Below are positions 5,759 through 24,649 of a DNA stretch of 64,000 nucleotides, one piece after another. Both the position numbers and the translations under genes were made by a program. This DNA is from Chitinophagales bacterium (GTDB lineage: Bacteria; Bacteroidota; Bacteroidia; Chitinophagales; JADIYW01): positions 77,525-141,524 of the forward strand of contig JAMLHI010000006.1 in assembly GCA_023957235.1 (NCBI GenBank). Reading direction: 5' to 3'. Every line of letters starts with the position of its first letter. The first letter of the stretch is position 1. The notes beneath the pieces are model-generated. The model saw nothing but the letters and a program-made list of their open reading frames with translations. It was not told the DNA's origin and did not search any database.

Positions 5759-6229
5759 ATGAAAAATTCACTTCTCTTACTTTTATTTTCCTTGTTATCT
5801 GTATCCGCCTTGGCTCAGGAATCATTTGTCAGTCTTGGAGGAGATGTTTTTGGAAATACAGCAAGCATGAGTTATTCAATAGGTCAGTTGAATTATCTTT
5901 CAACTAAAACAGGTACACATCTTATAGTTGAAGGAGTACAACAACCTGAATTAAAAAAGCCAACGGGTATTGTTATTTATAAAAATTTATATATTGATGC
6001 TTGGCCAAATCCTACGACCAATAGGTTGCACCTTCAAATAAATGGTGAATTGCCTCAGAAAATTGAATATGTTATGTTCGATGTCAAAGGGCAATATCAA
6101 TTCTCAAAGCGACTAACGAATTCTTCAGTAGATATTGATGTAAGTTCTCTTTTGCCAGGTGTATATATGTTGAATGTCATGGCAGACCAACAAGTGATTA
6201 AAAATTTTAAAATTATCAAACTTCAATAA
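5759..6229 (+). CDS. Small secreted protein with T9SS type-A C-terminal sorting domain
   Basis: Signal peptide ending SALAQE. The C-terminal ~80 aa has a Por-tail pattern (AWPNPTTNRLHLQI...LLPGVYMLNV...IIKLQ). It lies 26 nt upstream of the fibre gene. Confidence 0.75.
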   Translation: MKNSLLLLLFSLLSVSALAQESFVSLGGDVFGNTASMSYSIGQLNYLSTKTGTHLIVEGVQQPELKKPTGIVIYKNLYIDAWPNPTTNRLHLQINGELPQKIEYVMFDVKGQYQFSKRLTNSSVDIDVSSLLPGVYMLNVMADQQVIKNFKIIKLQ

Positions 6230-6255: not shown

Positions 6256-9200
6256 ATGAAAAAGCTAAGCATTACTTTACTATTTTTTCTTTTTTCTCTG
6301 CTGTTTGTCTATGCACAACTGCCCAAAAAACTAAGTTACCAAGCTATTATAAGAGATAATAATGGTCAAGTTATTTCTAACCATTCTATAGGTTTGAAGG
6401 TTGAAATATCCAATGGATTTGTTGTTTATTCCATACCAGTTCTAAGTGGATTGCAGACGAATAGTGTGGGACTTTTGAGTACTGATTTAGATTTGAGTAA
6501 TCAAAATATAGATTGGAGTCAAGGCCCTTTTACTATGAAAGTGCTAGTAAGTACGCAAGATGATGGAAATTATGATTTGATAACAGAGAAAGAAATTTCA
6601 AGTGTCCCTTATGCATTATTTGCTTTAGATGGAAATGTTGGTCCAAAAGGAGAAAAGGGTGACAAAGGTGATGCTGGGACTGGTATCACAGTCAAAGGTT
6701 CGCTTACAAGCCCAAATGATTTACCTGCAAGTGGAAATGATGGTGATGCCTATTTGATAGACGGTTCACTATATGTATGGACTGGCAACGGATGGGAAAA
6801 TGTAGGAAATATTCAAGGTCCCAAAGGCGATAAAGGAGATACTGGAGCTACTGGTTCACAAGGTATCCAAGGTGAAAAAGGAGAACAAGGTATAGCAGGA
6901 CAGCAAGGTCCAAAAGGCGATAAGGGTGATGCTGGAACTACTGGACCACAAGGTATTCAAGGTGAAAAGGGAGAACAAGGTATAGCAGGATTACAAGGTC
7001 CGAAAGGAGATAAAGGAGAAGCAGGTACAGGAGTAACTATCAAAGGTTCGCTTACAAGTCCAAATGATTTACCTGCAAGTGGAAATGATGGTGATGCCTA
7101 TTTGATAGACGGTTCTCTTTATGTATGGACTGGCAACGGATGGGAAAATGTAGGAAATATTCAAGGTCCAAAAGGCGATGCTGGAGCTACTGGCCCACAA
7201 GGTATTCAAGGTGAAAAAGGAGAACAAGGCATAGCAGGACAGCAAGGTCCAAAAGGTGATAAAGGAGATGCTGGAGCTACTGGCCCACAAGGTATTCAAG
7301 GTGAAAAGGGAGAACAAGGTATAGCAGGATTACAAGGTCCAAAAGGAGATAAAGGAGATGCTGGAGCTACTGGTCCACAAGGTATCCAAGGAGAAAAAGG
7401 AGAACAAGGCATAGCAGGACAGCAAGGTCCAAAAGGCGATAAGGGTGATGCTGGAGCTACTGGACCACAAGGTATTCAGGGTGAAAAAGGAGAGCAAGGT
7501 ATAGCTGGGCTACAAGGTCCAAAAGGAGATAAGGGTGATGCTGGAGCTACTGGACCACAAGGTATTCAGGGTGAAAAAGGAGAGCATGGTATAGCTGGGC
7601 TACAAGGTCCAAAAGGCGATGCTGGAGCTACTGGCCCACAAGGTATTCAAGGTGAAAAAGGAGAACAAGGTATAGCAGGATTACAAGGTCCAAAAGGCGA
7701 TAAAGGTGATGTTGGTGCAACAGGTATTCAAGGTATTCAAGGTGAAAAGGGAGAACAAGGTATAGCAGGGCTACAAGGTCCAAAAGGCGATAAAGGTGAT
7801 GTCGGTGCAACAGGTCCACAAGGTGTTCAAGGAGAAAAAGGAGAACAAGGTATAGCAGGACAGCAAGGTTCAAAAGGAGATAAAGGTGATGCTGGAGCTA
7901 CTGGTCCACAAGGTATTCAAGGTGAAAAAGGCGAACAAGGTATAGCTGGACTACAAGGTCCAAAAGGTGAAAAAGGTGATGCTGGAGCTACTGGACCACA
8001 AGGTATTCAAGGTGAAAAAGGAGAGCAAGGTATAGCTGGGCTACAAGGTCCAAAAGGAGATAAAGGGGACAAAGGAGATCCAGGGTCATATATTGCAGGG
8101 ACTGGAATTACAATCTCTGCTGGAGGTAATACCATTTCTGCCAATAATACTTTACCTATTTGGAATGCCAATCAACTACAATCCACAGGTGTTTCAAGTA
8201 CAGTTCCTACGATTGGTCAAGTGTTAGAATATAACGGTCAACAATGGGAGCCAGCTGATAAAGAGAATTTTTCAAGTTTTTTTAAATCTGATAATAATCA
8301 AATTACTTATAACGATTCTGCAGATTATGGTAAGAGTTTTCTAGTGAATACTTCATCTATCAACTATGCTGGAGGAAATAGCCAACAAGCTGAATATAAA
8401 TTGATGTTTTTACCTAGCAAAAAGGGTGCTTTTAGAGCAGGTTCAGTAGGATATACAGATTGGGATGAAAATAATATTGGAGAAGGTAGCATTGCTTTAG
8501 GAAAATCTTCTACTGCAAGTGGAGAAAATGCAGTTGCTATTGGTAGCTTTAATTTAGCTTCTGGTATTAATGCAGTTGCAATTGGAACATCAAGTCAAGC
8601 AACAAATATTTATGCGATGGCATTAGGTTTTAATAGTACTGCTTCAGGAGATAATTCCAAATCAATGGGATATGGATCTACTGCCTCTGGTAGTAATTCT
8701 TTAGCAACTGGATATATTTCAAATGCTTTAGGTAATAATTCTACCGCAATGGGGTCTTTTACTACCGCATCGGGCATTAGCTCTACTTCTTTGGGCACTA
8801 GCACATTGGCTGCAGGAGAAAATTCAATAGCTATGGGAAGAAATGCCACAACAGAAGTAAATAACTCTCTTGTTTATGGGTCTTATATTACTTTAGATAA
8901 AAATTCTCAAGGAAGTGTCATTTTAGCTGATGCTTCACGTAGCAGCAGTAATACAAAAATCTTTACAAGTACTCCTAATGTTTTTTACGGATTGTTTGCA
9001 GGAGGCTATCGCTTTTATACTGATGCTAATGGAACAGTTGGATTAGGTGTAGCTCCTGGTGGCAATAGTTGGGTAACTATTTCTGATAGTACCAAAAAGG
9101 AAAACTTCCAGCCATCTTCAGATATTTTAAGTAAAATTTCTAAAATGAAATTAGGTTCATGGAATTATAAAGGTCAGGATAAAAATGCTTTCAGGCACTA

Positions 9201-9483
9201 CGGACCGATGGCGCAGGAATTTTATCACTATTTTGGTCATGACGGTATCGGAACAGTAGGAAATGATACTACTATTGCATCTTCAGATATTGATGGAGTG
9301 ATGATGATTGCGATCCAGCAACTCATACAAGAAAACGAGCAACTCAAAACCGAAATCAGTGCCTTGAAATCTGAAAATAATACACTCAAAGTAAGTATTG
9401 AATCTGAATTGAGTATTTTAAAAGCTGACATAGCAAATTTAAAAGTTGGTATTAACAATAGCGGTATTGTGGAAAAAGAATAA
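6256..9483 (+). CDS. Chimeric surface fibre: collagen-like GXY repeats, YadA-head (Hep_Hag)-like repeats, and a C-terminal S74-type intramolecular chaperone (tail-fibre) domain with coiled coil
   Basis: Signal peptide. GXY triplets span 6640-8085. G-x-N-S/A-x-A-x-G repeats lie at about 8479-8850 (GENAVAIG, GINAVAIG, GDNSKSMG, GSNSLATG, GNNSTAMG, GENSIAMG). An S74-like segment ISDSTKKENF...YGPMAQEF...DGVMMIAIQQL starts at about 9079, followed by heptad-like ENEQLKTEISALKSEN. Confidence 0.85.
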   Translation: MKKLSITLLFFLFSLLFVYAQLPKKLSYQAIIRDNNGQVISNHSIGLKVEISNGFVVYSIPVLSGLQTNSVGLLSTDLDLSNQNIDWSQGPFTMKVLVSTQDDGNYDLITEKEISSVPYALFALDGNVGPKGEKGDKGDAGTGITVKGSLTSPNDLPASGNDGDAYLIDGSLYVWTGNGWENVGNIQGPKGDKGDTGATGSQGIQGEKGEQGIAGQQGPKGDKGDAGTTGPQGIQGEKGEQGIAGLQGPKGDKGEAGTGVTIKGSLTSPNDLPASGNDGDAYLIDGSLYVWTGNGWENVGNIQGPKGDAGATGPQGIQGEKGEQGIAGQQGPKGDKGDAGATGPQGIQGEKGEQGIAGLQGPKGDKGDAGATGPQGIQGEKGEQGIAGQQGPKGDKGDAGATGPQGIQGEKGEQGIAGLQGPKGDKGDAGATGPQGIQGEKGEHGIAGLQGPKGDAGATGPQGIQGEKGEQGIAGLQGPKGDKGDVGATGIQGIQGEKGEQGIAGLQGPKGDKGDVGATGPQGVQGEKGEQGIAGQQGSKGDKGDAGATGPQGIQGEKGEQGIAGLQGPKGEKGDAGATGPQGIQGEKGEQGIAGLQGPKGDKGDKGDPGSYIAGTGITISAGGNTISANNTLPIWNANQLQSTGVSSTVPTIGQVLEYNGQQWEPADKENFSSFFKSDNNQITYNDSADYGKSFLVNTSSINYAGGNSQQAEYKLMFLPSKKGAFRAGSVGYTDWDENNIGEGSIALGKSSTASGENAVAIGSFNLASGINAVAIGTSSQATNIYAMALGFNSTASGDNSKSMGYGSTASGSNSLATGYISNALGNNSTAMGSFTTASGISSTSLGTSTLAAGENSIAMGRNATTEVNNSLVYGSYITLDKNSQGSVILADASRSSSNTKIFTSTPNVFYGLFAGGYRFYTDANGTVGLGVAPGGNSWVTISDSTKKENFQPSSDILSKISKMKLGSWNYKGQDKNAFRHYGPMAQEFYHYFGHDGIGTVGNDTTIASSDIDGVMMIAIQQLIQENEQLKTEISALKSENNTLKVSIESELSILKADIANLKVGINNSGIVEKE
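6640..8085 (+). repeat. Intragenic tandem repeats: 12 copies of a 90-bp (two are 81-bp) collagen unit plus a ~348-bp macro-duplication
   Basis: The unit encodes GPKGDKGDAGATGPQGIQGEKGEQGIAG(L/Q)Q. A globular insert (KGSLTSPNDLPASGNDGDAYLIDGSLYVWTGNGWENVGNIQ) is duplicated at 6693-6830 and 7041-7178 with only a few mismatches. Confidence 0.9.
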
Positions 9484-9513: not shown

Positions 9514-9548
9514 GAAAGGTTGTCCTATAAGGCAACCTTTCTGATTTG
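9514..9548 (+). terminator. Possible terminator of the fibre operon
   Basis: Stem aaaggttg / caaccttt (9515-9522 / 9533-9540) with a ~10-nt loop. The downstream T-tract is weak (ctgatttg). Confidence 0.4.
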
Positions 9549-9587: not shown

Positions 9588-9634
9588 TACCTTATTTATG
9601 GTATTGTGGTAAAATAGCTACTTCTTTAACTTTA
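9588..9634 (+). promoter_or_regulatory. Candidate promoter with the same dyad/-33/-7 cassette as 5664-5710, upstream of the beta-barrel/giant operon
   Basis: TACCTTATTTATGGTATTGTG (9588-9608), then 19 nt, then TAACTTTA (9627-9634). 20/21 identity to the first block, with identical spacing. Confidence 0.4.
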
Positions 9635-9692: not shown

Positions 9693-11402
9693 ATGAAAGT
9701 AGATAAAGCATATTTAGTCATTTTTCTTTTATTGTTTAAAAGCTTGTCAGCTCAAGATTTTACTGATATTAAAGAAAAGAAGCCTTTCGAAATATCTGGG
9801 AGTGTAGGTGCTGGTACTAATTTCTATACGTCTAATGAGGTCTATAAAACAAGAGATCCTTTTAATTGGAGTCTTTATGGCAATGTGAATATGAAAATCT
9901 ACGGTTTTGAACTTCCTTTCTCTTTCAATGTAGCGCAATTTAGCACTAGCTATACTACTCCTTTTGCACAGTTAGGCGTCAGTCCTACTTATAAATGGAT
10001 AAAAGTTCATGTAGGATATAGAAGTATGTCAATGAACCCATTGGTTTTTGATGGTCAGACTTTTCTCGGTGCTGGTGTAGAACTTAGTCCAGGCAAATTT
10101 AGGATAGGTGGTTTTTATGGAAGATTAAATAAAGCCATTAGTGAAGATACTACTGCTGATAGAAGAGTAGAGCCTCAATATTCTAGGCTTGGTTATGGAA
10201 TCAAAGCTGGTTATGAGGGCAAAAATGGGTCATTCGGTTTGCAACTATTTCATGCCAAAGACAATAAGGAATCTGTTAAAACAATATTGGACACATTAAA
10301 TACAATTTTTCCACAAGAAAATACAGTAATAGGAAGCATTTGGTCGGTAACGATTGCTAAGGTATTGTCTTTTACTGGAAATATAGGTATGAGTATGTTG
10401 AATAGAAATTCATTTTATCCCGAAACAGACGCTTCGACAGGTCTTGAAATGCCCAAATTTGTTAATAAAATCAATAAGTCTAATGTGACTTCTGCTTTTA
10501 GCTTTGCAGGAAAGGCAGGCATAAATTTAAGCCTAAAACCAATCAAATTAGCAGTTAACTACCAAAGAATACAACCTGATTATATTTCTTTAGGTATGCC
10601 ATATACAGTCAATGATGTAGAAGCTTATAATGCATCTGCAAGTACAACGCTCTTTAAAGGAAAATTAAATTTGAATGGTGCATTTAGTAATCAACATAAT
10701 AATTTAAGTAAATCGCTGATTTCTGAAATTCATTCAAGAGTTGGAAATGTAACTGTTTTTGCCAATTTAGGTCAGCATTTTAATATATCTAGCAATGGAA
10801 ATATTGCAAGAGTTTTTCAAAAGAATGGTATTGTAGAATTGAGTGATAGCGTAAAAATGGATCAGACGATGATTTCATTTATGGTTTCTCCCAACCTGAT
10901 ATTTAATTCAGAAAAAATCAATCATACCATCAATACTTCATTTACTTATACAAATCTTAACGACCATAATCCTGTCACTTCTGCACAAGTTCAAGGAAAT
11001 AATATGAATGTTTCTACCAACTATTCTTTACAATTCACTAAAGCGTTTACTGGTGTCAACACTGGCGTAAATTACAGCATATATGGACAAAAAGATTTAA
11101 GATATCAATCTACTGGTATTAATATAGGAGCAAATACTCAATTACTAAAGCAACATCAATTGGGCCTTCAAGGAAGTGTTGGTTATTTTTTCAATCAGTC
11201 TAATGGAGAAAAAGTGGGCAACAATATCAGTTTTACCTTCAATGCTAATATGAGTGCTAAGAAACATAGTTTTGGCCTATTTAGTAGTTATTTGATTACG
11301 CCACCTATTGACCTCAATCCTTTGAATAAATTAGAAATTGTTCCCTATTCTGTGAATACAAAAAATTTTTCAGCTGGTGTGAATTATACTTATCAATTTT
11401 AA
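9693..11402 (+). CDS. Predicted outer-membrane beta-barrel protein, family not recognised
   Basis: Signal peptide (LLLFKSLSAQ). Alternating hydrophobic/polar strand texture with many G/Y/N/S turns. The C-terminus ...GVNYTYQF carries the terminal-Phe OMP signature. Confidence 0.6.
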   Translation: MKVDKAYLVIFLLLFKSLSAQDFTDIKEKKPFEISGSVGAGTNFYTSNEVYKTRDPFNWSLYGNVNMKIYGFELPFSFNVAQFSTSYTTPFAQLGVSPTYKWIKVHVGYRSMSMNPLVFDGQTFLGAGVELSPGKFRIGGFYGRLNKAISEDTTADRRVEPQYSRLGYGIKAGYEGKNGSFGLQLFHAKDNKESVKTILDTLNTIFPQENTVIGSIWSVTIAKVLSFTGNIGMSMLNRNSFYPETDASTGLEMPKFVNKINKSNVTSAFSFAGKAGINLSLKPIKLAVNYQRIQPDYISLGMPYTVNDVEAYNASASTTLFKGKLNLNGAFSNQHNNLSKSLISEIHSRVGNVTVFANLGQHFNISSNGNIARVFQKNGIVELSDSVKMDQTMISFMVSPNLIFNSEKINHTINTSFTYTNLNDHNPVTSAQVQGNNMNVSTNYSLQFTKAFTGVNTGVNYSIYGQKDLRYQSTGINIGANTQLLKQHQLGLQGSVGYFFNQSNGEKVGNNISFTFNANMSAKKHSFGLFSSYLITPPIDLNPLNKLEIVPYSVNTKNFSAGVNYTYQF

Positions 11403-11411
11403 AATTTATTG

Positions 11412-14400
11412 ATGATGAAAAATACAGTTCAAATATTCAACGATATAAAGATAGCAGCTATTAGCTTTTTCTTATCCCTGCTTTTTACAACATATGCTTT
11501 TGGTCAACAGAATGTCAATGTCAATGTGATTGTCATGCAACCAATGTCACCCTACTTGCCTCAACTAGTCAATGAGATACAATATGGACAGTTGGGAACA
11601 GATGGCTCCACATTAAAAGATAAAATTATTATCAATTTGCACAATCTTTCTCAAGAACAGAAACAAATCAAATTGAGTGCAAAGTTAGAGCGTTTAAGTC
11701 CGACTTATGGGTCTATTTATCTTAATCCCAATTATCAACCTTCTCAACCTATCTTGATGGCACCTAATCAAATGATGCGTGTCGATAGAGCAATGGTAGA
11801 TGCTGCATTTGGTGGATTTTCCAAGAGAGAATTGATTTTTGACAATATGGATTATTCGTCCATGAAACAAAATGCTTTAAACTATAAACTACCTGAAGGG
11901 ATGTATAGACTTTGTGTGACAGCTTATGATTTTAATGATATAGGTCAGACGATTCCTTTGGGAAGTGGTTGTGCTACTTTTAATATATGTTATAGTGCTT
12001 CCGCTCCACAATTTACTATGCCGTTTTCTTCTATTATGCTGCAAGGTAGAGAGTTTGGCGTATTAACACCTATGACTAATCAAATTCAATTTGCCTGGAT
12101 CGCTCCTAGTACTACTTGTGGGTTTCCTCTTGGATTCATTACTTATGACTTTGAAATTAGAGAAATATATTCAGGGCAAAGTATCAACGATGCAAGGAAT
12201 AATGTTTATGTGTTTAGAAAAAATAATATTCCAACCAATCTATTTATTTTAGATACCCTTTTATACAGAAATGTATTAATGTCTGGTAAAAGTTATATAG
12301 CCAAAGTAAAGGCTAATACTCAGTACAATCCCAACAACCCTCTTGAAATACAAAATCAAGGTTATAGCGAGATTATAGCTTTCAAATATCAACCCAATAA
12401 TAATAGTAATCCACCAATAATTAGTGGAGGAACAGTACCAACAGTTCCAATAAATGCTCAAACGCCTATTACCCAACATTTACCTACAACACCGCCAATT
12501 ACAGGACTTCCAGGTGTCAATATCCCATCAAGCCCCACTCCATTTGCTATTGCCGATTCTGAACCAGCAACTATTTCTACTCCTCCAGGAGTTGTGCTTA
12601 CACCTACGTCTGGTTCTATACCAGATATGCCTATTAATTGTGGGCTACCTACTATTGATAATACAATATCTTTCTCTGGTGTACTCAATAATGGAGATAT
12701 TGTGAAAGTAGGTGAGTTTGATGTGAAAATTCTCAGTGCTACTAAAGATGGTAGCATATATAAAGGTACAGGAGAAATAATTTGGTCGCCATATTCTCGA
12801 CCTATTATGATGAATGTCAAATTTGATGACATAGAAATTAATAGTGATAAAAAAGTTATTTCAGGAAAAGTTATAACAACGAGTGCTATAGAAGATATCA
12901 ATATGATCAATGTTAGTGTTCCTGAATTTTTAAATCAAGTAGGTAACTTAAAAGATAAAGCGGATAATATTGTCAATAAGGCCAACAGTGCTTTAAAACC
13001 ATTGAATCAACTTACAGGAAATAGCCCTGTGGATTTCCCTTTAGGACTTAATAATGTCAACATTGCCGGAACTAAATCTACTCTTGCTATCATGGGGATA
13101 GTCTTTACTCCCAAAGGTGCAGATGCTAGGATGTTGTTTACTATGAAAATCCCTGGTGCTGGTGCTGGAAATGAATGGCTTTCATTGGCTGGAGCTGGAT
13201 TTTGTATTCACCCAGATGCATTTTCTGTGGCGGATGGTATATTGTATTTACCTAACGACAGAAGTATTGATATGGGTGGAGGTGTAGCCTTTAAACTAAG
13301 AGGTGGCTTTTTGGGAGACTCAAGCAATACTTCCTATGTGAAATGGAATAGCACAGATGGTTTTGAACGGGTATTTATAAAAGCATCTGTTACTTTACCA
13401 AAAGATGTCAAGCCTGTAGATGCTTTAGGCAATGAAACGAGTGGTCAAGTATCTTTGGATACCCGATTTGATTTTAAAGAATGGGAGAAATGGATAGCTC
13501 ATCTCAATACTGATTCAAGATTTTCTATCGAAGGACTTCCAGGATTTGTCATTGACCCAAAAGGAGGAATATTTTATGACCACTCAGTAGAAGCCAACCC
13601 TGCAAACCTCACTTGGCCGACAGATGCTTCTGATGTTAAGTTTGTAGGAAAAGAAGGAAATACTTATAAAGGTTTCTATATGAATGATCTTGAAATGAGT
13701 CTTCCAAAAGATTTTGCAGGAAGTTCCACCTCTACATTACCTACTATCAATATAAAAAATCTTTTTATCAATAGTGATAATGGACTTTGGGCGGATATCT
13801 CAGCTAATAAATTACTTGACTATGGAAAAGGAGATCTTGGAGGCTGGTTATTTAGTATAGATAAAATTGATATTCCTATCAAAAAATGGATACCTCGTGG
13901 TGCTGCTATGTCAGGGGTGGTATCCTTACCTATTAGTGATGACTCTTTATCATACTCATGTGGGCTCAATACTGTAGATGGTCATGTCAATTACAACTTC
14001 AGTGTTTCTACTGTTGGTGATTACATAATACCTATGTGGATTGCAGATGCAACTTTGGGGGCTGGTACTAGTATTCAGATTGTGAAAGAAAATGATGCTA
14101 AACTGAAAGTAGGTGCTGATTTGAATCTGCTACTGAGTATTGATATCAGCAATAAGCCCAAAGTAGTACTCAATGCCGTTGATATTCAAGGAATGCAAAT
14201 CGCCAACTACAACATGAAGGAAAGTAATATCGCTAAGCAAAAAATTGGTGAATTTTATTTCTTCTCAGGTGATATCAAGTTTGCTACTTTGGCTCGAAGT
14301 AGTGGAAAAGATAATGGTACTGGAATGCAGTTTTTTGAAGAAGAAAATGATGGTTTCTTATTCGCGCATGGACCTTATCCTACTCCTGACGGCGGAAGTA

Positions 14401-17400
14401 CATCAGGTGGCTCTTCATCCCAGGACAATACGGTATGTGGATTTGGTTTTGAACCCAAAAGTTTCAGCTCTAAAGTATCTACTAAAGATGGACATTTTGC
14501 AGTCGGTCTTGAGCTTGGTGTAGGTTTGAGATTAGGTACTGAGGCCATTCAGCTCAACGGAGAAACTGTATTTACTGTATGGGGAGTGATGGGAGGAACA
14601 ACTATGAAGCCCACAGCTAAAGGAAGTTATCCATTTGTAGAACTTAATAAGGTGTCTATCGATGGCAATTTTGGTGAAGCCATTAGAGCAAAAGCTACTT
14701 TGGAGTTTAAAAATGACGATGAATGGGGACAAGGTGTCATTGGAGAGGGAGATGTAATCTTCCCAATGGGAATAGAAATATCTGCCACAGTTGTCTTTGG
14801 TTCTAAATCCGATTATAAATATTTTGGTTTTGGAGCTTCTCTCTATATGCAATCAGGCTTGTTTCCAATAGGTCCTTTGGTAGTCAATGGATTTGGAGGA
14901 GGATACTATCACAATTTAGATATCATCACTGGAGATACCAGCAACTGGAATAGACCTTTTAGTTTTAAACCAAGGAAAGGAACAATGGCTTTTAATGTGA
15001 GCTTAGATCTCACTTATATTCGAGCTGAAATGGTTAAAGCCAATGCCGGATTTACTTTACAACTCAATAGCAGTGGTGGGTTTGATAAAATAATGATCAA
15101 TGGATGGGCAAATATTATATCTGATGGTAAGCAAAAAAGTAAAGGTATCGTCAATGCAGAACTCAAACTAGAGTTTGCACAAAACAACTTTGATATGTAT
15201 GTAGGTACTAATATCAAGATGTTCGTTTCTGAAGCTGATATTCCTATATGGGTGCACGTAGGAAAAGATAAAGAGGATTATCAATATTGGTTGTATCTAG
15301 GATATCCTGCAAGAGAAGGAAGTACAGAAGAAGCTATGGGAGAAGCATATCGTCGTATTGCAGTTACTTTTATCAATATCAATACTGGTATTTTAAAAGT
15401 ATATCTTGGTGCTCAAGCATATTTCTGTGCAGGAACAAAACTACCCCAATTTCCACCTTTACCCAACGAAGTCAATGAGTTTTTAGGAGACAAATCTTCT
15501 AGTATGAGCAAAATGCTTTCAGATATAGGAGGAGGTCAATCAGGGTTTGTGTTTGGTGCTTCTGTAGATGGGAATATCAGATTGCAAATGGGTATCTTTT
15601 ATGCAAAAGCTACTGCAAAAATAGGATTTGATGTTGCATTTAGGTACTTCACAAAATCACCTTGTGGAGGTGCAACTGATATGAATGAACGAGCTAACTA
15701 TCCTACTGATTTTGGCATGAATGGCTGGTATGCCAATGGACAGATGTATCTCTTTTTCAGTATGGATGTCGGCTTTATATTGGACTTGTGGTTTTGGTCT
15801 GGAGAAGTGAGTTTAGTCAAGTTAGCGATAGGAGCTGCTTTAGAAGCAGGGCTTCCTAATCCGACATGGATGGATGGTCGTATAAAGATTGAGGGAGAAG
15901 TATTAGGAGGCTTGATTAGAGTAAATACAAGTGCAAGATTTAGCATAGGTACCAAATGTTCAGCAGGAGGAGATCCTTTAGCCAATATCGAAATGATTTC
16001 AGAGTTTGGACCAGCTGAAAATGATGTCAGCATATTTGCTAATCCTTATGCTACTTATAGTATTCCTATGTCCAACAAGCAACCAGATAACCCAATTGAG
16101 GTAGAGTTTCAAGTTCCTAAAACAGTCAATGGCAAAGAGGTTTTAGATGACAATGATATGCCTGTAATAGTGACTAGAGTCTATAAGTTTATTGTAGATG
16201 ATGCTAAATTATTGAAATATTCTTCCAATGATAAAAAATCAACATCTACAAAAGTTGGTGGTATAGAAATTCAATATAGCGACAATGGATATGCATCTTC
16301 TTTTATCAACAAAGGACTCAATGCTCTTGAAGAAAAGACTTTATATGGCGCTTATATAAGAGGGAGGGCTTTTGAGAAAATTGGAAGTAAATGGGTGAAT
16401 CCAAAAGAACATCCTCAAGGGTTTACACAAGATTCTATCATATATTTTGCAACTGGAAATGCGCCAAGAGTGATTGATGATTATGCGGTAGTCAATAGCT
16501 ACCCAATGAAAGGACAGAATTTCTTCTTGAAAAATGAATTTAATCGAAAAGGCAAAATTTTATTATATCAATACACAGATTCCTATTTTACATTTGAAGA
16601 TGCTACTGTTCCCGAATTAAAATTGACGTTCGTTGAAAAAAATACAGGCGCTAGAATCAATACTTCATTTAAAGCGGATCCATCCCAGCATATTACATTT
16701 GATATTCCTTCAAGTCTTAAAAATGAAACTATTTATCAAATGTACTTCTCGGTAGAAGATAAAAATTATGCCAAAGGAATGACTGAAAAAATAAAAATAG
16801 CCGACATAGATTTACGTGAAAAAAGTGGTCGAATAAATTTGTCAATGGATAATGTTTTTGAGAATTTTGATGTTAGCAATAGTACTCAGAGTTCACCAAA
16901 CTTAACAGGAACTTCTGGAGGTGTTACAATGCCTAAAGCTGGAATCAACAATGCTTTAATTTTCCCTAAAGATGAGCCTAGTTCACCTCTTGCAATAGAT
17001 ACAAAAGGTATTAAAGCAACAAATCCATATTCTAGTTCTAGTTCAGGCTCTAGCTCCAATAGTTATTCTGTAAGCGATATAAAAGACAATGATTATAAAT
17101 CTATTACTCCAAGTACAATAAAAGATGCAGTTTATATCTATGGCAACTCTGTCGTGTCAGAAGAAGGAGATACTCTAGCATTGATTGGACATACGACTGA
17201 AGTGTTCCAACCTGAGTCTGGAAGAATTATTTATTCAAGTATATTTAAAACTAGTAAGTATAATAGTTTTCAAGAAAAAATGGCAAGTCTTGGAGATAAA
17301 TTGAATGCAGCTGAAAAATCAAGTGATGACTTTTCTGCTTTACTTTATTATGATATAAAGAATGATCCTGATATTGATAAGACTGTTCAAAAAGAGGTGA

Positions 17401-18632
17401 AAGGAAAAAGTATCTATGATGTTGAAATTCCAATATTTAATACTGGCGAATTGTTTGATGAGTTTGAAGTCAAAGGGATGAAAAGAAAAGTAGGTTACGA
17501 TAAATCACATTTATTTGACTATACCATTCCTCCTTTATTGAAAATCAATGCTAATAAATATCAAACAGATTATACACTATATGCCTATGCAAGCCCAAGA
17601 TTATCATCATCTGAACATTATTCAATAGCAATGTACTCTATTGCAAATACACTGGTAGATAGTAATTTTCTAAAGATTTCTTTTTCCAATCCATATATAA
17701 GAGGTTTAAAATTTGACTCACAAACATCTAAAATATTATCCACTACCTATAGCATACCTTCAGATCCTTATCAGATGTCTAATGAGGGTGTTTATTATAC
17801 ATTGCTTAATAATGAAGGGTTGAGCACCATTGCAGGTGGTATAGTAAATAGTGGTATTAGCTTCAATATCATTGACAAATCACCTTCAATTGTAGCGACA
17901 GATTTTTATCTGTTAAAATTAGCTGAAGAAAGCTATGCCAAAGGAAGAGTAGAGCTTAAATCATATTATAATCAAGTGGATTTTTCTACGTGGTCTTATT
18001 TAAGTGATTATAATTATTTGCAATTCAAAGATAGAATTGTAAAGACATATATGAAGAGGTTGGCAACTTATCAAGATGGTTTTATCAATGTCAATATTCA
18101 AGACAATAAAGTAGATTTTGATGATAAGACAAAGTATGCACAAAGTTTTTGGATAGGAAAAGAGGGACACAAACTTATGGAAAGTGTACGTTTGTTGGAT
18201 TATAAAGTCAATAGCAGTTACGACAATGAAATCTATATTTCTTATGGTCATGATGCATTGGGTGATTTAAGACAATACAATTCAGGCAATAATAAAGACC
18301 AATATGGGAACACAAAACTAGGTTTTGATTTTACTAATTATAGTTTATTTCCGACTAATGGCCCGATGATAATGAAGAAGGTAGAAATGATTTCATCATC
18401 AGCCATGAGAGAAAAGAAAAAATTTATTGAAAATACAGGAACAATGTATGGAGCAGGCGTAACCTTTAATCTCCCAGCTGCTACTAATAGTGGAGCGGGT
18501 AGTAGTGATAATAGCACGCCAATACAACCTGATTTAAGTGGAACCAATGTCATTATTACTGCCAATCCTAATGTTATTTATAATCAGCCGCCTCAACCTG
18601 TCCCTTGGCCGCCAATTGTAGGAAGAAAATAA
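11412..18632 (+). CDS. Giant (~2,400 aa) exported protein of unknown family
   Basis: Uninterrupted 7.2-kb frame in AT-rich DNA with a signal peptide (...FTTYAFGQQ). Has Pro/Thr- and Ser-rich linkers. No T9SS CTD or catalytic motif noticed. The track start 11409 is TTG; ATG ATG follow at 11412/11415. Confidence 0.8.
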   Translation: MMKNTVQIFNDIKIAAISFFLSLLFTTYAFGQQNVNVNVIVMQPMSPYLPQLVNEIQYGQLGTDGSTLKDKIIINLHNLSQEQKQIKLSAKLERLSPTYGSIYLNPNYQPSQPILMAPNQMMRVDRAMVDAAFGGFSKRELIFDNMDYSSMKQNALNYKLPEGMYRLCVTAYDFNDIGQTIPLGSGCATFNICYSASAPQFTMPFSSIMLQGREFGVLTPMTNQIQFAWIAPSTTCGFPLGFITYDFEIREIYSGQSINDARNNVYVFRKNNIPTNLFILDTLLYRNVLMSGKSYIAKVKANTQYNPNNPLEIQNQGYSEIIAFKYQPNNNSNPPIISGGTVPTVPINAQTPITQHLPTTPPITGLPGVNIPSSPTPFAIADSEPATISTPPGVVLTPTSGSIPDMPINCGLPTIDNTISFSGVLNNGDIVKVGEFDVKILSATKDGSIYKGTGEIIWSPYSRPIMMNVKFDDIEINSDKKVISGKVITTSAIEDINMINVSVPEFLNQVGNLKDKADNIVNKANSALKPLNQLTGNSPVDFPLGLNNVNIAGTKSTLAIMGIVFTPKGADARMLFTMKIPGAGAGNEWLSLAGAGFCIHPDAFSVADGILYLPNDRSIDMGGGVAFKLRGGFLGDSSNTSYVKWNSTDGFERVFIKASVTLPKDVKPVDALGNETSGQVSLDTRFDFKEWEKWIAHLNTDSRFSIEGLPGFVIDPKGGIFYDHSVEANPANLTWPTDASDVKFVGKEGNTYKGFYMNDLEMSLPKDFAGSSTSTLPTINIKNLFINSDNGLWADISANKLLDYGKGDLGGWLFSIDKIDIPIKKWIPRGAAMSGVVSLPISDDSLSYSCGLNTVDGHVNYNFSVSTVGDYIIPMWIADATLGAGTSIQIVKENDAKLKVGADLNLLLSIDISNKPKVVLNAVDIQGMQIANYNMKESNIAKQKIGEFYFFSGDIKFATLARSSGKDNGTGMQFFEEENDGFLFAHGPYPTPDGGSTSGGSSSQDNTVCGFGFEPKSFSSKVSTKDGHFAVGLELGVGLRLGTEAIQLNGETVFTVWGVMGGTTMKPTAKGSYPFVELNKVSIDGNFGEAIRAKATLEFKNDDEWGQGVIGEGDVIFPMGIEISATVVFGSKSDYKYFGFGASLYMQSGLFPIGPLVVNGFGGGYYHNLDIITGDTSNWNRPFSFKPRKGTMAFNVSLDLTYIRAEMVKANAGFTLQLNSSGGFDKIMINGWANIISDGKQKSKGIVNAELKLEFAQNNFDMYVGTNIKMFVSEADIPIWVHVGKDKEDYQYWLYLGYPAREGSTEEAMGEAYRRIAVTFININTGILKVYLGAQAYFCAGTKLPQFPPLPNEVNEFLGDKSSSMSKMLSDIGGGQSGFVFGASVDGNIRLQMGIFYAKATAKIGFDVAFRYFTKSPCGGATDMNERANYPTDFGMNGWYANGQMYLFFSMDVGFILDLWFWSGEVSLVKLAIGAALEAGLPNPTWMDGRIKIEGEVLGGLIRVNTSARFSIGTKCSAGGDPLANIEMISEFGPAENDVSIFANPYATYSIPMSNKQPDNPIEVEFQVPKTVNGKEVLDDNDMPVIVTRVYKFIVDDAKLLKYSSNDKKSTSTKVGGIEIQYSDNGYASSFINKGLNALEEKTLYGAYIRGRAFEKIGSKWVNPKEHPQGFTQDSIIYFATGNAPRVIDDYAVVNSYPMKGQNFFLKNEFNRKGKILLYQYTDSYFTFEDATVPELKLTFVEKNTGARINTSFKADPSQHITFDIPSSLKNETIYQMYFSVEDKNYAKGMTEKIKIADIDLREKSGRINLSMDNVFENFDVSNSTQSSPNLTGTSGGVTMPKAGINNALIFPKDEPSSPLAIDTKGIKATNPYSSSSSGSSSNSYSVSDIKDNDYKSITPSTIKDAVYIYGNSVVSEEGDTLALIGHTTEVFQPESGRIIYSSIFKTSKYNSFQEKMASLGDKLNAAEKSSDDFSALLYYDIKNDPDIDKTVQKEVKGKSIYDVEIPIFNTGELFDEFEVKGMKRKVGYDKSHLFDYTIPPLLKINANKYQTDYTLYAYASPRLSSSEHYSIAMYSIANTLVDSNFLKISFSNPYIRGLKFDSQTSKILSTTYSIPSDPYQMSNEGVYYTLLNNEGLSTIAGGIVNSGISFNIIDKSPSIVATDFYLLKLAEESYAKGRVELKSYYNQVDFSTWSYLSDYNYLQFKDRIVKTYMKRLATYQDGFINVNIQDNKVDFDDKTKYAQSFWIGKEGHKLMESVRLLDYKVNSSYDNEIYISYGHDALGDLRQYNSGNNKDQYGNTKLGFDFTNYSLFPTNGPMIMKKVEMISSSAMREKKKFIENTGTMYGAGVTFNLPAATNSGAGSSDNSTPIQPDLSGTNVIITANPNVIYNQPPQPVPWPPIVGRK

Positions 18633-18657
18633 TTACTAACTTTAAGACTTTAAGAAT

Positions 18658-20859
18658 ATGATGAGTATCAAATATTTTATCAGCGAATTAACAAGAAAAT
18701 ATCTTATTGCTATATCTATATCCTTATGTATCTTTTGTTCAAATAATGATGCATTAGCTCAAGAAGTATCTGCTGAAGGAGAACATGATGCTAATCAAGT
18801 AGAAATAGATATTTCTATACATGCCAAAGCCTATGGGGACTCAATCGTGTTGAGATGGGCGCCTAATACTCCCATCGGATGGGTGATGGGAAGAGAAAAA
18901 GGATATAAGTTATTTCGTATGGAGCTTAATAAAGATGGTTCTATAGATACATTGACACTGACCTCAGTACCTATTCTACCGATGACTCCCAATCAGTTGA
19001 AAGCGAGTGGAGATAAAAATGATCAATACCTTGGACTTGCAGCTCAAGCGATGTATGGACAGAATTTCACAATGTCAAACCCCAATGAACAACTTAGTGA
19101 AATAGAAAAAATACGCAGTGCAAGCGATATGTTTCGCATGAGATATTATTTTGCACTTCAATCGGCGGATCTTTCTATCAATGCAGCAAATGCTTTGGGA
19201 TTGAGATATGTCGATAAAAAAGTAGAGAAAGGGAAAATGTATGATTATTATGTTTTCTGTGATACTTTAGATGCGGTCTATAATTTGACAATAGGACATA
19301 CCAATGTCATCAATTTCTATCAAGCTTATGCTCCCCAAAATATTAAAGCATATGCTTCGGATAAGCAAATTGAGCTACAATGGGATAGAAATCAGCTTGG
19401 AGAGTTTACTACTTATTATATTGAACGAAGTGATGATCACGGAAAAACTTTCAAAAGACTCAATGAAGTTCCTTTTCAGTCTATTTATCAATCCGATTCA
19501 AGTAAAGATGAAAATAGTCCAGAATATAAAATTAGCAATATTCTTAAAGAACATCATGTTTATTTCGACACTATCCCGAAAAACTATTTTGACTATCAAT
19601 ACAGAATCATAGGAATAGATGCATTTGCTGAATTAAGTGAATATTCTGACACTTTAACAGTACATGGAATTGATTTGACAGCACCTAAACCAGCCACAAT
19701 TGATAGTGTCAGCAATATCAGACTCAATCATATCTATATATCTTGGGTAGATCCCAATCAAGAAGCTGATTTGAAAGGATATTATGTCAATAGAGGTTCT
19801 GATGCTGCAGGTCCATTTTTTCCGTTACACCAAGAAATGTTAAGCAAAAAAACTAATAGCTTTATTGACTCTACTGCTGATGCTTTGCGTCCCAACTATT
19901 ATACTATCGTATCTGTTGATACTGCGCAAAATTATTCCTATTCTATACCCAGAAGAGGAATATTGACTGATAGCATACCACCATCAGCACCCGAAGTTAT
20001 CAAAGGGATTATGGATTCTGTCGGTTATATTGCACTGTTTTGGAAAAGTAGCCCTGAACCAGATGTAAAAGGATATAGTGTCTATATTTCTTACAATCAA
20101 GAAGGACCATATAGTATCGTTTCGAGAAATTTTGTCCAAGAAACTTATTTCTTGGATAGCATTAACACACGATCTAGAGATAGAAAAGTATATTATAAAA
20201 TAGTGGCAGTCGATCAAAATGGAAATCATTCTAAATTTTCCAATGCTATCGAAGTTCTTAAACCTATTATAATACCGCCTACTGCTCCTGTGAACAAATC
20301 TATTGACACAAAAGAAGGAGCCATATACAGCGAATGGATAGGCAGTGAAAGTGAAGGAGTGTGGGGCTATGAAATTTATCGCAAATTGAAAGACAGTAAT
20401 CAATGGGATACTTTAGCATGGGTACAGAGAGACCCTTTGAATATCAATTTTTATGTCAATGATGCTTCTGTTGTACCCAATGTAAAATATGCCTATGCAG
20501 CTTGTACTGTGGATAGTAGCGGTTTGCGTTCAAAGATATCCTTTCCTGTATGGGCAATGAATTATGATGTTCATCTTTTACCTGCAATTAGTGCTTTGAA
20601 TGCAGTTTCTGTGAAAAAGGATAATGTGATTCAGCTTTCATGGGAATATACACCAAAAAATAAAAATTATTACTTTGTTATTTATAAAGCAGAAAATGAT
20701 GAGCCGTTGACTGAATGGAACTCTGTCGATAAAACTCAATTAAATACCATAGATAAAGATATTAAGAAAGGAAATACTTACAGATACGCTATCGAAGTTA
20801 AGCAAAGTAATGGTGATTTAAAATCGAATAGAAGTGATGAAATAAAAATTAAATTTTAA
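18658..20859 (+). CDS. Exported protein built from about six FN3-like modules
   Basis: N-terminal hydrophobic anchor/signal. Recurrent module pattern W-x(6-10)-(KGY/WGY/TYY)-x-(V/I)-(Y/N/E)-R ... Y-x-Y-x-(I/V)-x-(A/S)-(V/I)-D-x-x-G/Q-N-x-S, for example ISWVDPNQEADLKGYYVNR...YYTIVSVDTAQNYS and LFWKSSPEPDVKGYSVYIS...YYKIVAVDQNGNHS. Confidence 0.7.
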   Translation: MMSIKYFISELTRKYLIAISISLCIFCSNNDALAQEVSAEGEHDANQVEIDISIHAKAYGDSIVLRWAPNTPIGWVMGREKGYKLFRMELNKDGSIDTLTLTSVPILPMTPNQLKASGDKNDQYLGLAAQAMYGQNFTMSNPNEQLSEIEKIRSASDMFRMRYYFALQSADLSINAANALGLRYVDKKVEKGKMYDYYVFCDTLDAVYNLTIGHTNVINFYQAYAPQNIKAYASDKQIELQWDRNQLGEFTTYYIERSDDHGKTFKRLNEVPFQSIYQSDSSKDENSPEYKISNILKEHHVYFDTIPKNYFDYQYRIIGIDAFAELSEYSDTLTVHGIDLTAPKPATIDSVSNIRLNHIYISWVDPNQEADLKGYYVNRGSDAAGPFFPLHQEMLSKKTNSFIDSTADALRPNYYTIVSVDTAQNYSYSIPRRGILTDSIPPSAPEVIKGIMDSVGYIALFWKSSPEPDVKGYSVYISYNQEGPYSIVSRNFVQETYFLDSINTRSRDRKVYYKIVAVDQNGNHSKFSNAIEVLKPIIIPPTAPVNKSIDTKEGAIYSEWIGSESEGVWGYEIYRKLKDSNQWDTLAWVQRDPLNINFYVNDASVVPNVKYAYAACTVDSSGLRSKISFPVWAMNYDVHLLPAISALNAVSVKKDNVIQLSWEYTPKNKNYYFVIYKAENDEPLTEWNSVDKTQLNTIDKDIKKGNTYRYAIEVKQSNGDLKSNRSDEIKIKF

Positions 20860-20998: not shown

Positions 20999-21631
20999 AT
21001 GAAAATAATAAAGGTATTACTATTTGAGGATAATGAAGAGTTGCGCCTCAGCCTTTCTGCATTATTGGGATTTTCTGAAGAATTTAAGCTTTTAGCATCT
21101 TTCAGCAATTGTGAAGATATTGAGTCTCATCTAATTGTATTCGAACCAGATATAGTCCTGATGGATATAGATATGCCAGTCGTCAATGGTATTGAAGGAT
21201 TAAAAAGAGTAAGAAAGGTGAATAATGATATTCCTGTGGTGATGTTGACTGTATTTGAGGATAACAAGCATATCATAAAAGCAATACAAAATGGTGCGAC
21301 AGGATATATTTTGAAACAAGATCTTTCGTCAAGACTTTCAAGTGCTATACATGAAGCATTAGATGGAGGTGCTCCAATGTCTCCTTTGGTAGCTTCTCTA
21401 GTATTGAAACATATTTCTAATAATATAAGTAAAATGGATTATCAGTTAACGAATAGAGAAAAGGAAATCTTGCAATCTTTGACAGATGGTAATAGTTATA
21501 AGATGGTTGCTAATTTATTAGGAATTGCCGAAGGTACAGTTTCGACTCATATCAAGAGGATATATGAAAAACTTGGTGTGCATTCTCAAGCAGAAGCAGT
21601 AAGCAAAGCTTTGAAAGAAAATATTTTATAG
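20999..21631 (+). CDS. NarL/FixJ-type response regulator (receiver plus LuxR HTH)
   Basis: Receiver with acidic pocket (LLFEDNEE, LMDIDMP). C-terminal LuxR-type HTH (LTNREKEILQSL...GTVSTHIKRIYEKLGV). Confidence 0.9.
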   Translation: MKIIKVLLFEDNEELRLSLSALLGFSEEFKLLASFSNCEDIESHLIVFEPDIVLMDIDMPVVNGIEGLKRVRKVNNDIPVVMLTVFEDNKHIIKAIQNGATGYILKQDLSSRLSSAIHEALDGGAPMSPLVASLVLKHISNNISKMDYQLTNREKEILQSLTDGNSYKMVANLLGIAEGTVSTHIKRIYEKLGVHSQAEAVSKALKENIL

Positions 21632-21685
21632 AAAAGTGTCGTGGCATTTTTTTAGATTTTCAAGAGAATTGTTATTTTTACTTAA

Positions 21686-24023: not shown

Positions 24024-24521
24024 TTAACCTCTGACCAATGAAATAGCATAATAAACAATGCACAATCCAAAAATAAAATTGATTCTTCCTACCCAGCTAG
24101 TGATTTTCCTGTAGCGATTAGTTATTTCATGCTCAGGTTTTTGTCTGATAAGTTCAGCCGTTTTAGGACCCAACCAGAAATCGTGTATGCCACTAATGAT
24201 CAGCATAAAGGCAAAATATATCAGTTTATGCAATAGATTAAATCCAAAATGAGTATGCCAAAATTCGGAGCTTAATAATTTTTCCCAATGATACCCTCTG
24301 AATGCCAATTGGTAATAACCAGTAATGAGCAAAATGATAAATATTAACCAGCTGATTTGGCTAAAATATTGACCCATGATACTAAAAAAATCGCCTCTAT
24401 TAGGACTGAGTTGTGGTTGTCTGAGACTAGGGACAATTACAAACATAGTGAATAACATTCCTCCCATCCAAAACATTGCTGAAAGGATGTGGATAAAAAC
24501 ACTTATTTTGTATAAAATCAT
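24024..24521 (-). CDS. Integral membrane protein (4-5 TM, possibly CopD-like)
   Basis: Hydrophobic helices throughout. The N-terminal HILSAMFWMGGMLF resembles CopD-family helices. Function uncertain. Confidence 0.5.
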   Translation of the reverse strand: MILYKISVFIHILSAMFWMGGMLFTMFVIVPSLRQPQLSPNRGDFFSIMGQYFSQISWLIFIILLITGYYQLAFRGYHWEKLLSSEFWHTHFGFNLLHKLIYFAFMLIISGIHDFWLGPKTAELIRQKPEHEITNRYRKITSWVGRINFIFGLCIVYYAISLVRG

Positions 24522-24649
24522 AATGTGTTAAGATATGGACAAAGTTTTTATTTTATTTGGTTTTAATATCATGTCTCTCAACAAAAATTACTATTGTAAA
24601 TATTTTTTGACATTATTCTGATATTTCTATTAGGGTGAAAGGTGAAAAA

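Follow-up and report, generated by a model that had tools for sequence, protein, structure and literature searches.

Organization of the locus

The window analysed here, a 64,000-nucleotide (nt) stretch of DNA from a Chitinophagales bacterium (contig JAMLHI010000006.1), carries at positions 9693 to 20859 three co-directional open reading frames (ORFs), ORF1 to ORF3, which are predicted to encode an outer-membrane beta-barrel, a giant exported protein and a fibronectin type III (FN3) repeat protein, respectively. An earlier note, made from the sequence by eye, had picked out this triad as the best candidate in the window for an undescribed surface or secretion apparatus. The features of the triad are listed below; residue numbers of ORF2 refer to a translation of 2407 amino acids (aa) that begins at a TTG codon.

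9514-9541, forward strand: terminator-like hairpin, 11-bp stem and T-rich tail; ends the upstream collagen-fibre gene
9693-11402, forward strand: ORF1, 569 aa; signal peptide, predicted 26-strand outer-membrane beta-barrel, terminal Phe
11412-18632, forward strand: ORF2, exported giant of 2406 aa when counted from the ATG; signal peptide at aa 1-32
11505-12413, forward strand: ORF2 N-domain, aa 33-335; two beta-rich subdomains, conserved Cys
12621-14288, forward strand: ORF2 coreA, aa 405-960; all-beta, downstream of a Pro-rich linker
14436-15968, forward strand: ORF2 coreB, aa 1010-1520; 24 long amphipathic strands (8-21 residues) in hairpins, conserved NGFGGG motif
15969-18629, forward strand: ORF2 C-terminal part; C1 (aa 1521-1800) moderately conserved, distal aa 1801-2407 least conserved
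18658-20859, forward strand: ORF3, 733 aa; signal peptide (A34|Q35), N-terminal domain, five FN3 repeats at aa 225-732

The coordinates given earlier were exact, with gaps of 9 nt between ORF1 and ORF2 and 25 nt between ORF2 and ORF3. The TTG-initiated reading frame of ORF2 covers 11409-18632 (2407 aa), and because the identical database protein P0001 counts 2406 aa, we placed the true start at the ATG at 11412, which yields the 9-nt gap. The hairpin at 9514-9541 closes the fibre gene, and the triad therefore forms a transcription unit of its own; within the operon terminator-like hairpins were weak and occurred at chance frequency (8 seen versus 8.6 expected in the scanned region), in agreement with the earlier claim that an internal terminator is lacking. 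The signal-like N-termini described before were also confirmed: all three proteins start with a hydrophobic signal peptide, after which comes a Gln (in ORF1 aa 1-20, cleaved at A|Q; in ORF2 the Gln is the invariant Gln33), and the same pattern was seen in orthologues of all three. A Gln after the cleavage site is a habit of Bacteroidota signal-peptidase-I substrates, and the N-termini of the triad fit it.

Recurrence of the module among Bacteroidota

In a locus survey using one genome per species, the module was found in 64 species loci, all from Bacteroidota and mostly from Chitinophagaceae/Puia, with others from Saprospiraceae/Lewinella, Flavobacteriales, Sphingobacteriales and Cytophagales. 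Gene order was the same in the five loci that were examined individually, namely those of Leadbetterella sp. DM7, Chitinophaga sp. Cy-1792, Oceanihabitans sediminis, a metagenomic locus whose 4,014-aa giant contains leucine-rich repeats (LRR), and a Bacteroidetes metagenome-assembled genome (MAG). In 60 of the 64 loci the next gene after that of the barrel encodes the N-domain, and the other four are truncated or highly divergent. When all flanking ORFs were clustered, 64 loci had the barrel, 62 the giant and 44 the FN3 protein. The gap between barrel and giant genes has a median of 12 nt (42 nt or less in 55 of 62), and that between giant and FN3 genes a median of 10 nt (58 nt or less in all). 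Because the gene order recurs in 64 species genomes, a chance arrangement of ORFs was ruled out, and the genetic coupling of barrel and giant is demonstrated.

The FN3 protein follows the giant in 39 of the 46 loci with enough downstream DNA. Six of the remaining seven carry a short variant, in which the barrel is accompanied by an N-domain protein of 676-899 aa, coreA and coreB are missing, and ORF3 is absent (L052, L056, L059, L060, L065 and L067; for example L065 9971-19419). Since nothing but the barrel and the N-domain protein is retained in this variant, we regard that pair as the minimal unit. By gene content, the universal unit is the barrel together with an N-domain-bearing protein, and ORF3 accompanies the giant forms and not the short variant. 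The short variant always adjoins a gene pair encoding a TIR-domain protein of ~490 aa and a STAND-type NTPase of ~1,225 aa in which WD40 repeats come after a predicted membrane helix.

One genome, the Puia sp. MAG DATNBP01, has two copies of the module (L013 and L050) with different bodies, whose barrels are 47% and 39% identical to ORF1; the divergence of the two copies suggests paralogous systems within one cell. A gene for a predicted lipoprotein of ~210 aa lies directly 5' of the barrel gene in 15 of the 64 loci (e.g., L062 9343-9978 and L029 9322-9957), 0.64-0.78 kb before the barrel start, and has no counterpart in the window.

ORF1 is predicted to be a bare 26-strand barrel

An AlphaFold2 model of ORF1, built from a 91-sequence alignment, reached a pLDDT of 86.9 and a pTM of 0.76 and contained 26 strands between residues 33 and 568, with short periplasmic turns, modest extracellular loops, and neither POTRA domains, nor a plug, nor an N-terminal domain. 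POTRA domains have no room in the protein, since the first strand begins at residue 33, which is 12 residues past the signal-peptide cleavage site. The C-terminus reads ...VNYTYQF, of which ...YTYQF is conserved in the family and the terminal F is also found in the family consensus, so that the earlier proposal of a beta-barrel with a terminal Phe gained support from both the family and the model. The hydrophobic face of the strands is 67% hydrophobic, and the opposite face is rich in N, S, G and T with 9% charged residues. ORF1 thus has the attributes of a generic outer-membrane barrel assembled by BAM, the machinery for beta-barrel assembly: a signal peptide, an even number of strands (26), amphipathic strands and a C-terminal aromatic residue. 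It contains no cysteine, is most conserved at aa 91-150, and its family numbers 198 or more clusters when grouped at 90% identity.

The structure search that the earlier note had proposed returned, as the top Foldseek match of ORF1 in PDB, MtrB (6r2q_B; E 4e-12, TMq 0.50, 10% identity), followed by SlpA, the FimD/PapC ushers (TMq 0.42-0.46), TonB-dependent transporters and LptD (TMq 0.27-0.30), all at ~10% identity. Judging from the model, these matches represent the generic similarity of large barrels and not membership in a family. MtrB, FimD/PapC, LptD and the TonB-dependent transporters are all large barrels whose lumen is occupied. To our knowledge, in the established structures of monomeric barrels with 22 or more strands, the lumen is filled by a plug domain or by a partner, and a partner would therefore be expected in the lumen of ORF1.

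Architecture of the giant protein and of ORF3

The homologues of ORF2 are proteins of 2,000-4,500 aa from Chitinophagales, Cytophagales and Flavobacteriales, and all database names for relatives of the barrel and the giant are "hypothetical protein". When ORF2 was compared with the Oceanihabitans (Flavobacteriales) giant, residues 30-327 aligned at 49% identity and the remainder was unalignable by BLAST. An exhaustive search among representatives found the N-domain in 478 clusters at 50% identity, almost always at residues ~25-335 of very large proteins. These searches identify the N-domain as a universally conserved, barrel-linked sequence module of the giant family; by eye it looks like Ig/FN3-type sandwiches and not like a beta-helix.

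Hidden Markov models of the ORF2 regions, derived from a 24-sequence alignment and run on 128 giants, matched the N-domain in 128, coreA and coreB in 111 each, C1 in 76, C2 in 51 and C3 in 34, so that conservation, as judged by these profiles, falls from the N- to the C-terminus. The 17 giants without a detectable core constitute a class rich in CarboxypepD_reg domains (class 2). In a profile of 13 class-2 giants, the extreme C-terminus proved homologous to coreB (hhalign probability 95.9%, E 5.6e-9), and this modular architecture is an observed property of the family. Relatives have other sequences in place of aa 1801-2407: the variable parts include 11 DUF285/LRR repeats and CarboxypepD_reg/bMG3 domains, and other tails are, by eye, LRR-rich or long and helical-looking. 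According to their domain matches, the LRR/DUF285 and CarboxypepD_reg/bMG3 ends are typical surface-adhesin material.

A conserved N-terminal "delivery" part joined to a variable C-terminal part is also what one would see if ORF1 secreted the giant into the medium or toward other cells as a released effector, with coreB inserting into a target membrane, the variable C-terminus providing specificity or activity, and ORF3 serving as a chaperone or accessory. The existence of several paralogues with different bodies, the amphipathic and beta-rich nature of coreB, and the conflict-type TIR and STAND-WD40 genes beside the short variant are compatible with this idea. We nevertheless consider it improbable, as the variable ends identified are LRR/DUF285 and CarboxypepD_reg/bMG3 repeats and not enzymatic toxin domains, none of which was recognized among the variable parts examined; furthermore, PADLOC gave no match, and a small immunity-like gene is not consistently found 3' of the giant, where the next gene encodes an FN3 protein of 660-770 aa.

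In ORF3, an iterated search within its own family delimited FN3 repeats at aa 225-335, 343-429, 442-533, 541-631 and 648-732 (E 1e-15 to 1e-28). The Pfam fn3 match was borderline (E 1.8e-5, just above the gathering score), and the PDB matches, to the FN3 chains 6tpw_A and 3mpc_A, were weak. Profile and tandem-repeat evidence together identify ORF3 as an FN3 repeat protein at the sequence level. The earlier count of "about six" modules was a fair one: five repeats are supported, and the N-terminal domain starts in an FN3-like manner.

Co-evolution divides the module into two units

Pairwise-distance matrices from 24 complete loci, in which the distances between pairs are not independent, gave a correlation of r 0.93 (partial r 0.76) between barrel and N-domain, and of r 0.96 (partial r 0.69) between ORF3 and coreB. 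The values for ORF3 and coreA were r 0.95 and partial r 0.21, and those for barrel and coreB were r 0.72 and partial r -0.01. Co-evolution within the module is thereby demonstrated, and the N-domain distances track the barrel more closely than they track the rest of their own polypeptide. That the N-domain follows the barrel better than its own chain argues for two functional units, barrel/N-domain and ORF3/core, which have been exchanged at the Pro-rich linker. The pattern of ORF3 identity points the same way, though it is a cruder measure: in loci that have the core, ORF3 identity is 32-44%, whereas with a different body it is only 22-28%, or ORF3 goes undetected, even when the barrel is at 47-48%.

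A proposed outer-membrane display module

We propose, with a probability of about 0.5, that the triad is a dedicated, Bacteroidota-specific outer-membrane display module, similar in logic to two-partner or retention-type systems and built from unrelated parts, in which a non-Omp85 barrel exports and/or anchors the giant through its N-domain. This proposal is based on the genetic coupling, the co-evolution of barrel and N-domain, the plug-less anatomy of the barrel, the N-to-C gradient of conservation, the adhesin-type ends, and the signal peptide plus Gln shared by all three proteins. After Sec export, ORF1 would be inserted into the outer membrane, and the N-domain (~300 aa, two beta-sandwich-like subdomains) would engage the barrel, probably by occupying its lumen, acting first as a targeting signal and then as the plug or anchor that retains the giant. 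The remaining chain would end up outside the cell, where coreA and coreB together with ORF3 could form a conserved base or stalk and the variable C-terminal part an exposed binding end. Expression would probably be governed by the adjacent TPR-kinase/GerE-regulator pair through a dyad shared with the collagen-like fibre operon, so that triad and fibre are produced together (see below).

Several points weigh against this view. We infer the contact between barrel and N-domain, the surface exposure of the giant, its topology, the direction of transport and the energy source from the anatomy and the distance data, and co-evolution of adjacent genes can partly reflect a shared recombination history instead of contact. 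In some giants the N-domain subdomains occur in tandem, in 2-5 copies, which is awkward for a single lumen plug. The ORF1 model has no periplasmic receptor domain that could recognize a substrate. The AlphaFold2 model of ORF2 aa 405-1560, which is all-beta, is only moderately confident (pLDDT 70, pTM 0.39), and the long amphipathic strands of coreB could be a membrane or lipid-binding element.

In a bolder form, which we hold tentatively and think distinctly less probable than the display module itself, the barrel/N-domain pair would be an unrecognized export-and-retention pathway and hence a new type of secretion system: the plug-less, non-Omp85 barrel would recognize the Ig/FN3-like N-domain, pass cargoes of ~370 to more than 4,000 residues to the cell surface, and be sealed by the N-domain, which would anchor the cargo, and the FN3-array partner would assemble with the conserved, beta-rich base of the cargo. 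Outer-membrane protein traffic in Bacteroidota is now explained mainly by secretion through the type IX system (T9SS), lipoprotein surface export and BAM. If the barrel exports or anchors giants, a new route to the cell surface would be added, and this would account for the deployment of many "hypothetical" proteins of 2,000-4,500 residues in soil, water and marine Bacteroidota. The module is compact and widely recurring; it combines a very large, accessory-free barrel with giants that have adhesin-type ends, and apart from the FN3 repeats of ORF3 its parts belong to no described family. Whatever the function, the three new families (barrel, N-domain and coreA/coreB) and the two-unit pattern of co-evolution are worth curating, and the question is open to direct testing in several cultured strains that have the module, such as Chitinophaga sp. 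Cy-1792, Leadbetterella sp. DM7, Oceanihabitans sediminis S9-10 and Neolewinella agarilytica DSM 24740. As for the apparatus suggested in the earlier note, the module is recurrent, no description of it was found in the literature searched, and a role at the surface or in secretion is what its anatomy and co-evolution point to.

Alternative roles for coreB

One face of the coreB strands is 77% hydrophobic with 5.5% charged residues, and the other is 29% charged, compared with 27% in coreA and 9% in ORF1. A Foldseek search with the coreA/coreB model placed LptD complexes (E 1.7e-6) and ApoB100 at the top, and also returned SlpA, Occ porins, FhuA, ushers and an RHS shell, with TM-scores of 0.27 or less; coreB compared with beta-taco proteins gave TM-scores of 0.17 or less, and the comparison of the model with viral models produced no meaningful match.

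These properties could be taken to mean that coreB is itself a membrane barrel or sheet that joins ORF1 in a two-barrel or hybrid complex, the giant itself exporting the domains on either side of coreB, as inverse or classical autotransporters do, and depending on ORF1 as its partner. The 24 strands of 8-21 residues are arranged in tight hairpins at a strand density equal to that of ORF1, one face is suitably hydrophobic, LptD, SlpA, Occ porins, FhuA and ushers are among the structural matches, and class-2 giants carry coreB at the extreme C-terminus, as classical autotransporters carry their barrels. However, all TM-scores are low and the pTM is 0.39; the charge on the other face is near that of the soluble-looking coreA and unlike that of ORF1; the usual aromatic end motif is lacking in the class-2 proteins P0025 and P0162; coreB shows no co-evolution with ORF1 (partial r -0.01); and the short variant does without coreB. 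We therefore regard such a complex as unlikely, though somewhat less so than the other alternatives considered here.

The same hydrophobic face, the LptD and ApoB100 matches at the head of the list, and the 26 strands that ORF1 has in common with LptD might instead indicate a machine for lipid handling or envelope biogenesis of the LptD/LptE or TamA/TamB kind, in which the amphipathic sheet of coreB would form a hydrophobic groove along which lipid or some other hydrophobic cargo reaches or crosses the ORF1 barrel. This is about as improbable as the released effector, because the LptD, OstA, AsmA and DUF490 profiles were unmatched and the signal peptide of the giant is cleavable, leaving no inner-membrane anchor. 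In addition, the module has a patchy, accessory distribution (64 species loci, most of them in Chitinophagaceae, with one MAG having two copies), often has a two-component system nearby and carries hypervariable adhesin-like ends, all of which would be unexpected for a housekeeping lipid transporter.

Comparison with known systems

The display module proposed above was compared with characterized systems. Pfam and NCBIfam contained no match to ORF1 or ORF2, the latter scanned whole and as five pieces at E<=10, consistent with the earlier statement that ORF2 falls outside named families. PADLOC and PHROGs also left ORF1 and ORF2 unmatched, by which a phage or defence element was rejected, and PDB sequences matched neither of them, with single proteins or with family profiles. 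The profile searches of the triad that the earlier note had suggested revealed no signature of Omp85/ShlB/POTRA, two-partner secretion (TPS), TamB/AsmA, DUF490, SprA, PorP/SprF or the T9SS C-terminal sorting domain (CTD), and so extended its remark that POTRA, TPS and DUF490 signatures could not be seen. The scans that were blank for ORF1-3 detected Por_Secre_tail in the neighbours at 5759-6229 and 26791-30885; because identical scans found such domains there, the lack of a sorting domain in ORF2, likewise noticed before, is meaningful. A search of the full-text literature found no description of a barrel/giant/FN3 module. The module thus occurs in this order well beyond the present genome and matched no characterized system, and on the strength of the negative homology evidence and of our reasoning about function, we rate it as outside the known kinds of system.

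In two-partner secretion (FhaC/FHA, ShlB/ShlA), as in the triad, a barrel gene adjoins the gene of a very large exoprotein, export is Sec-dependent, the operon encodes no ATPase, and the giant has a conserved N-terminal domain of ~300 aa that is paired with the barrel and followed by a variable remainder. Unlike two-partner secretion, the module includes a third gene, that of the FN3 array. TpsB is a 16-strand Omp85 barrel with two periplasmic POTRA domains, and the N-terminal TPS domain of TpsA is a beta-helix; ORF1 has 26 strands and no Omp85/ShlB/POTRA match (Pfam/NCBIfam E<=0.1), and a TPS (Haemagg_act) match was found neither in ORF2 (whole or aa 1-340, Pfam/NCBIfam E<=10) nor in PDB, so both assignments were rejected. 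TamA/TamB, AsmA and DUF490 were rejected as well: such proteins have an N-terminal inner-membrane anchor and an Omp85 partner barrel, and here no profile matched, the signal peptide of ORF2 is cleavable, and ORF1 is not Omp85-like.

MtrB and LptD share with ORF1 the number of 26 strands, and in MtrB/MtrA and LptD/LptE the lumen is occupied by a separately encoded partner; the Mtr set also consists of three proteins, of which one is a surface component. LptD is composed of an N-terminal OstA beta-jellyroll and a C-terminal 26-strand barrel plugged by the lipoprotein LptE. Unlike MtrB and LptD, ORF1 has no N-terminal beta-jellyroll, and its partner ORF2 is a multidomain protein of 2,400 aa. We dismissed LptD/LptE because there was no OstA/LptD profile match, no N-terminal domain, a TMq of only 0.27-0.30, and no lipoprotein in the module. 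An MtrB/PioB porin-cytochrome complex was dismissed because the MtrB_PioB profile did not match and the similarity to MtrB (TMq 0.50) is generic, and an Mtr-like electron conduit because ORF1-3 contain zero CXXCH haem motifs.

The FimD/PapC ushers (24 strands) are also large monomeric barrels, and they pass or hold folded Ig-like domains; unlike them, the triad has a single giant polypeptide as its putative substrate and not polymerizing pilins. An usher is a 24-strand barrel with an internal plug, an N-terminal domain and C-terminal domains, working with a PapD-like periplasmic chaperone and pilins, and a chaperone-usher assignment was rejected since no usher or chaperone profile matched, the ORF1 model has no plug or terminal domains, and the TMq was 0.42-0.46. 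In inverse autotransporters (type Ve), a single polypeptide carries a 12-strand barrel (IAT_beta) at its N-terminus and Big/Ig passenger domains behind it; here barrel and giant are separate polypeptides, IAT_beta and Big gave no match, and ORF1 has 26 strands, so that this assignment was rejected too. LapA is a giant repeat adhesin retained by an N-terminal module, and it lacks a Sec signal and is exported through a TolC-like trimeric channel with an ABC transporter and a membrane-fusion protein. The logic that we propose resembles that of LapA/LapE, in that a folded N-terminal module lodged in an outer-membrane channel tethers a giant adhesin with a variable distal end; unlike in that system, all parts of the triad are Sec substrates, genes for an ABC transporter or a membrane-fusion protein are missing, and the channel would be a monomeric beta-barrel.

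The sprF/sprB pair, too, consists of a Bacteroidota-specific barrel gene adjoining the gene of a giant, repeat-rich surface protein, and one could envisage that ORF1 is a PorP/SprF-type carrier of a giant adhesin, as SprF is for SprB, the giant being type IX or gliding cargo with an unrecognized signal. Every host is a member of Bacteroidota, and T9SS substrate genes lie nearby (5759-6229 and 26791-30885 in the window; also in L004). This is the least probable of the alternatives, and we give it very little weight: ORF2 has neither a type A nor a type B CTD, by which T9SS cargo was rejected, scans of ORF1-3 for a type IX substrate, the SprA translocon or a PorP/SprF carrier gave nothing, and the conserved recognition module of the giant is N-terminal and not C-terminal. 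Moreover, SprF acts via twin C-tail cysteines that are disulfide-bonded to GldK (PMC12635249), whereas ORF1 contains no Cys.

Regulation and genomic surroundings

The following features outside the triad may bear on its expression.

5664-5684, forward strand: dyad element copy 2; 75 nt upstream of the ATG with which the fibre unit begins, that of the small T9SS-CTD gene (5759-6229)
9588-9608, forward strand: dyad element copy 1, 21 nt, TACCTTATTTATGGTATTGTG; 85 nt upstream of the ORF1 ATG
20999-23554, forward strand: two-component system; NarL/GerE-type response regulator at 20999-21631, TPR-HisKA_3 histidine kinase at 21686-23554

The adjacent TPR-HisKA_3 kinase and GerE-type regulator are likely to regulate the module. 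An orthologous response regulator (64-70% identity) flanks the triad in L009 (Leadbetterella), L011 and L058, and more distant regulators flank it in L055, L064, L022 and L038; a regulator/kinase pair is also present in the metagenomic locus with the LRR giant (L006). As a raw count, uncorrected for their background frequency in these genomes, 35 of the 64 loci have two-component genes of mixed types within 10 kb. The earlier note had proposed examining whether the three genes and the neighbouring two-component system co-occur across Bacteroidota: the three-gene order recurs, but the association with two-component systems is frequent and not universal.

The dyad, with the consensus TACC[C/T]TATTTATGGTATTGTG, occurs in exactly two copies in the window versus 0.02 expected, so the shared promoter/dyad cassette reported before is real as far as the 21-nt element is concerned; the similarity of the two upstream regions is confined to that element. 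The neighbouring GerE/NarL-type regulator is a candidate to bind the copy at 9588-9608, and the sharing of the dyad suggests that the fibre unit and the triad are co-regulated, presumably by that regulator. A search for the exact dyad in related loci gave nothing relevant, and the 11-nt core TTATGGKATTG alone recurs: it is found upstream of the operon's first gene in Leadbetterella (L009 8768-8778) and in L058 (8949-8959), and in L011 (15295-15305) it lies ~90 nt upstream of an RCC1-repeat lipoprotein gene that adjoins the triad. The core, recurring in the three loci with a 64-70% identical regulator, may define a small regulon. We do not claim the dyad as a NarL-type site; its 16-nt core appears by eye to be a 7-2-7 inverted repeat, of which only the outer TACC/GGTA fit the NarL heptamer.

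The fibre gene upstream of the triad (6256-9483) encodes a Sec-exported protein whose repeats are of the collagen triple-helix and YadA-head types and whose C-terminus carries a Peptidase_S74 chaperone domain, and is preceded by the gene of the 156-aa T9SS-CTD protein (5759-6229). Collagen-like (lipo)proteins adjoin the triad in seven related species loci, at L009 8970-9971 and L058 9049-9960 and, just after the FN3 gene, in L018, L021, L022, L023 and L064; L055 20471-21358 is a 41%-identical match to the fibre. Collagen fibres may be functionally linked to the triad. In L058, several tandem copies of a repeat of ~120-190 nt (ctgcgcacctctgcgcaaccttcgcgaaactctgcgttataactcc...) lie within 8400-8900, in the intergenic region between the response regulator and the collagen-like gene.

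Elsewhere in the window, to the left of the triad, where the earlier note placed an IS remnant, the 106-aa ORF at 4950-5270 had no Pfam match, and Rfam and tRNA scans of the window were empty. The reverse strand encodes two secreted proteins, one of 577 aa with a Fib_succ_major domain (2884-4617) and one of 1,364 aa with a T9SS sorting domain (26791-30885). Genes for envelope and surface proteins predominate from the MtaB-like gene (1499-2821) up to the CopD, PIG-L and glutathione-peroxidase genes (24024-25860).

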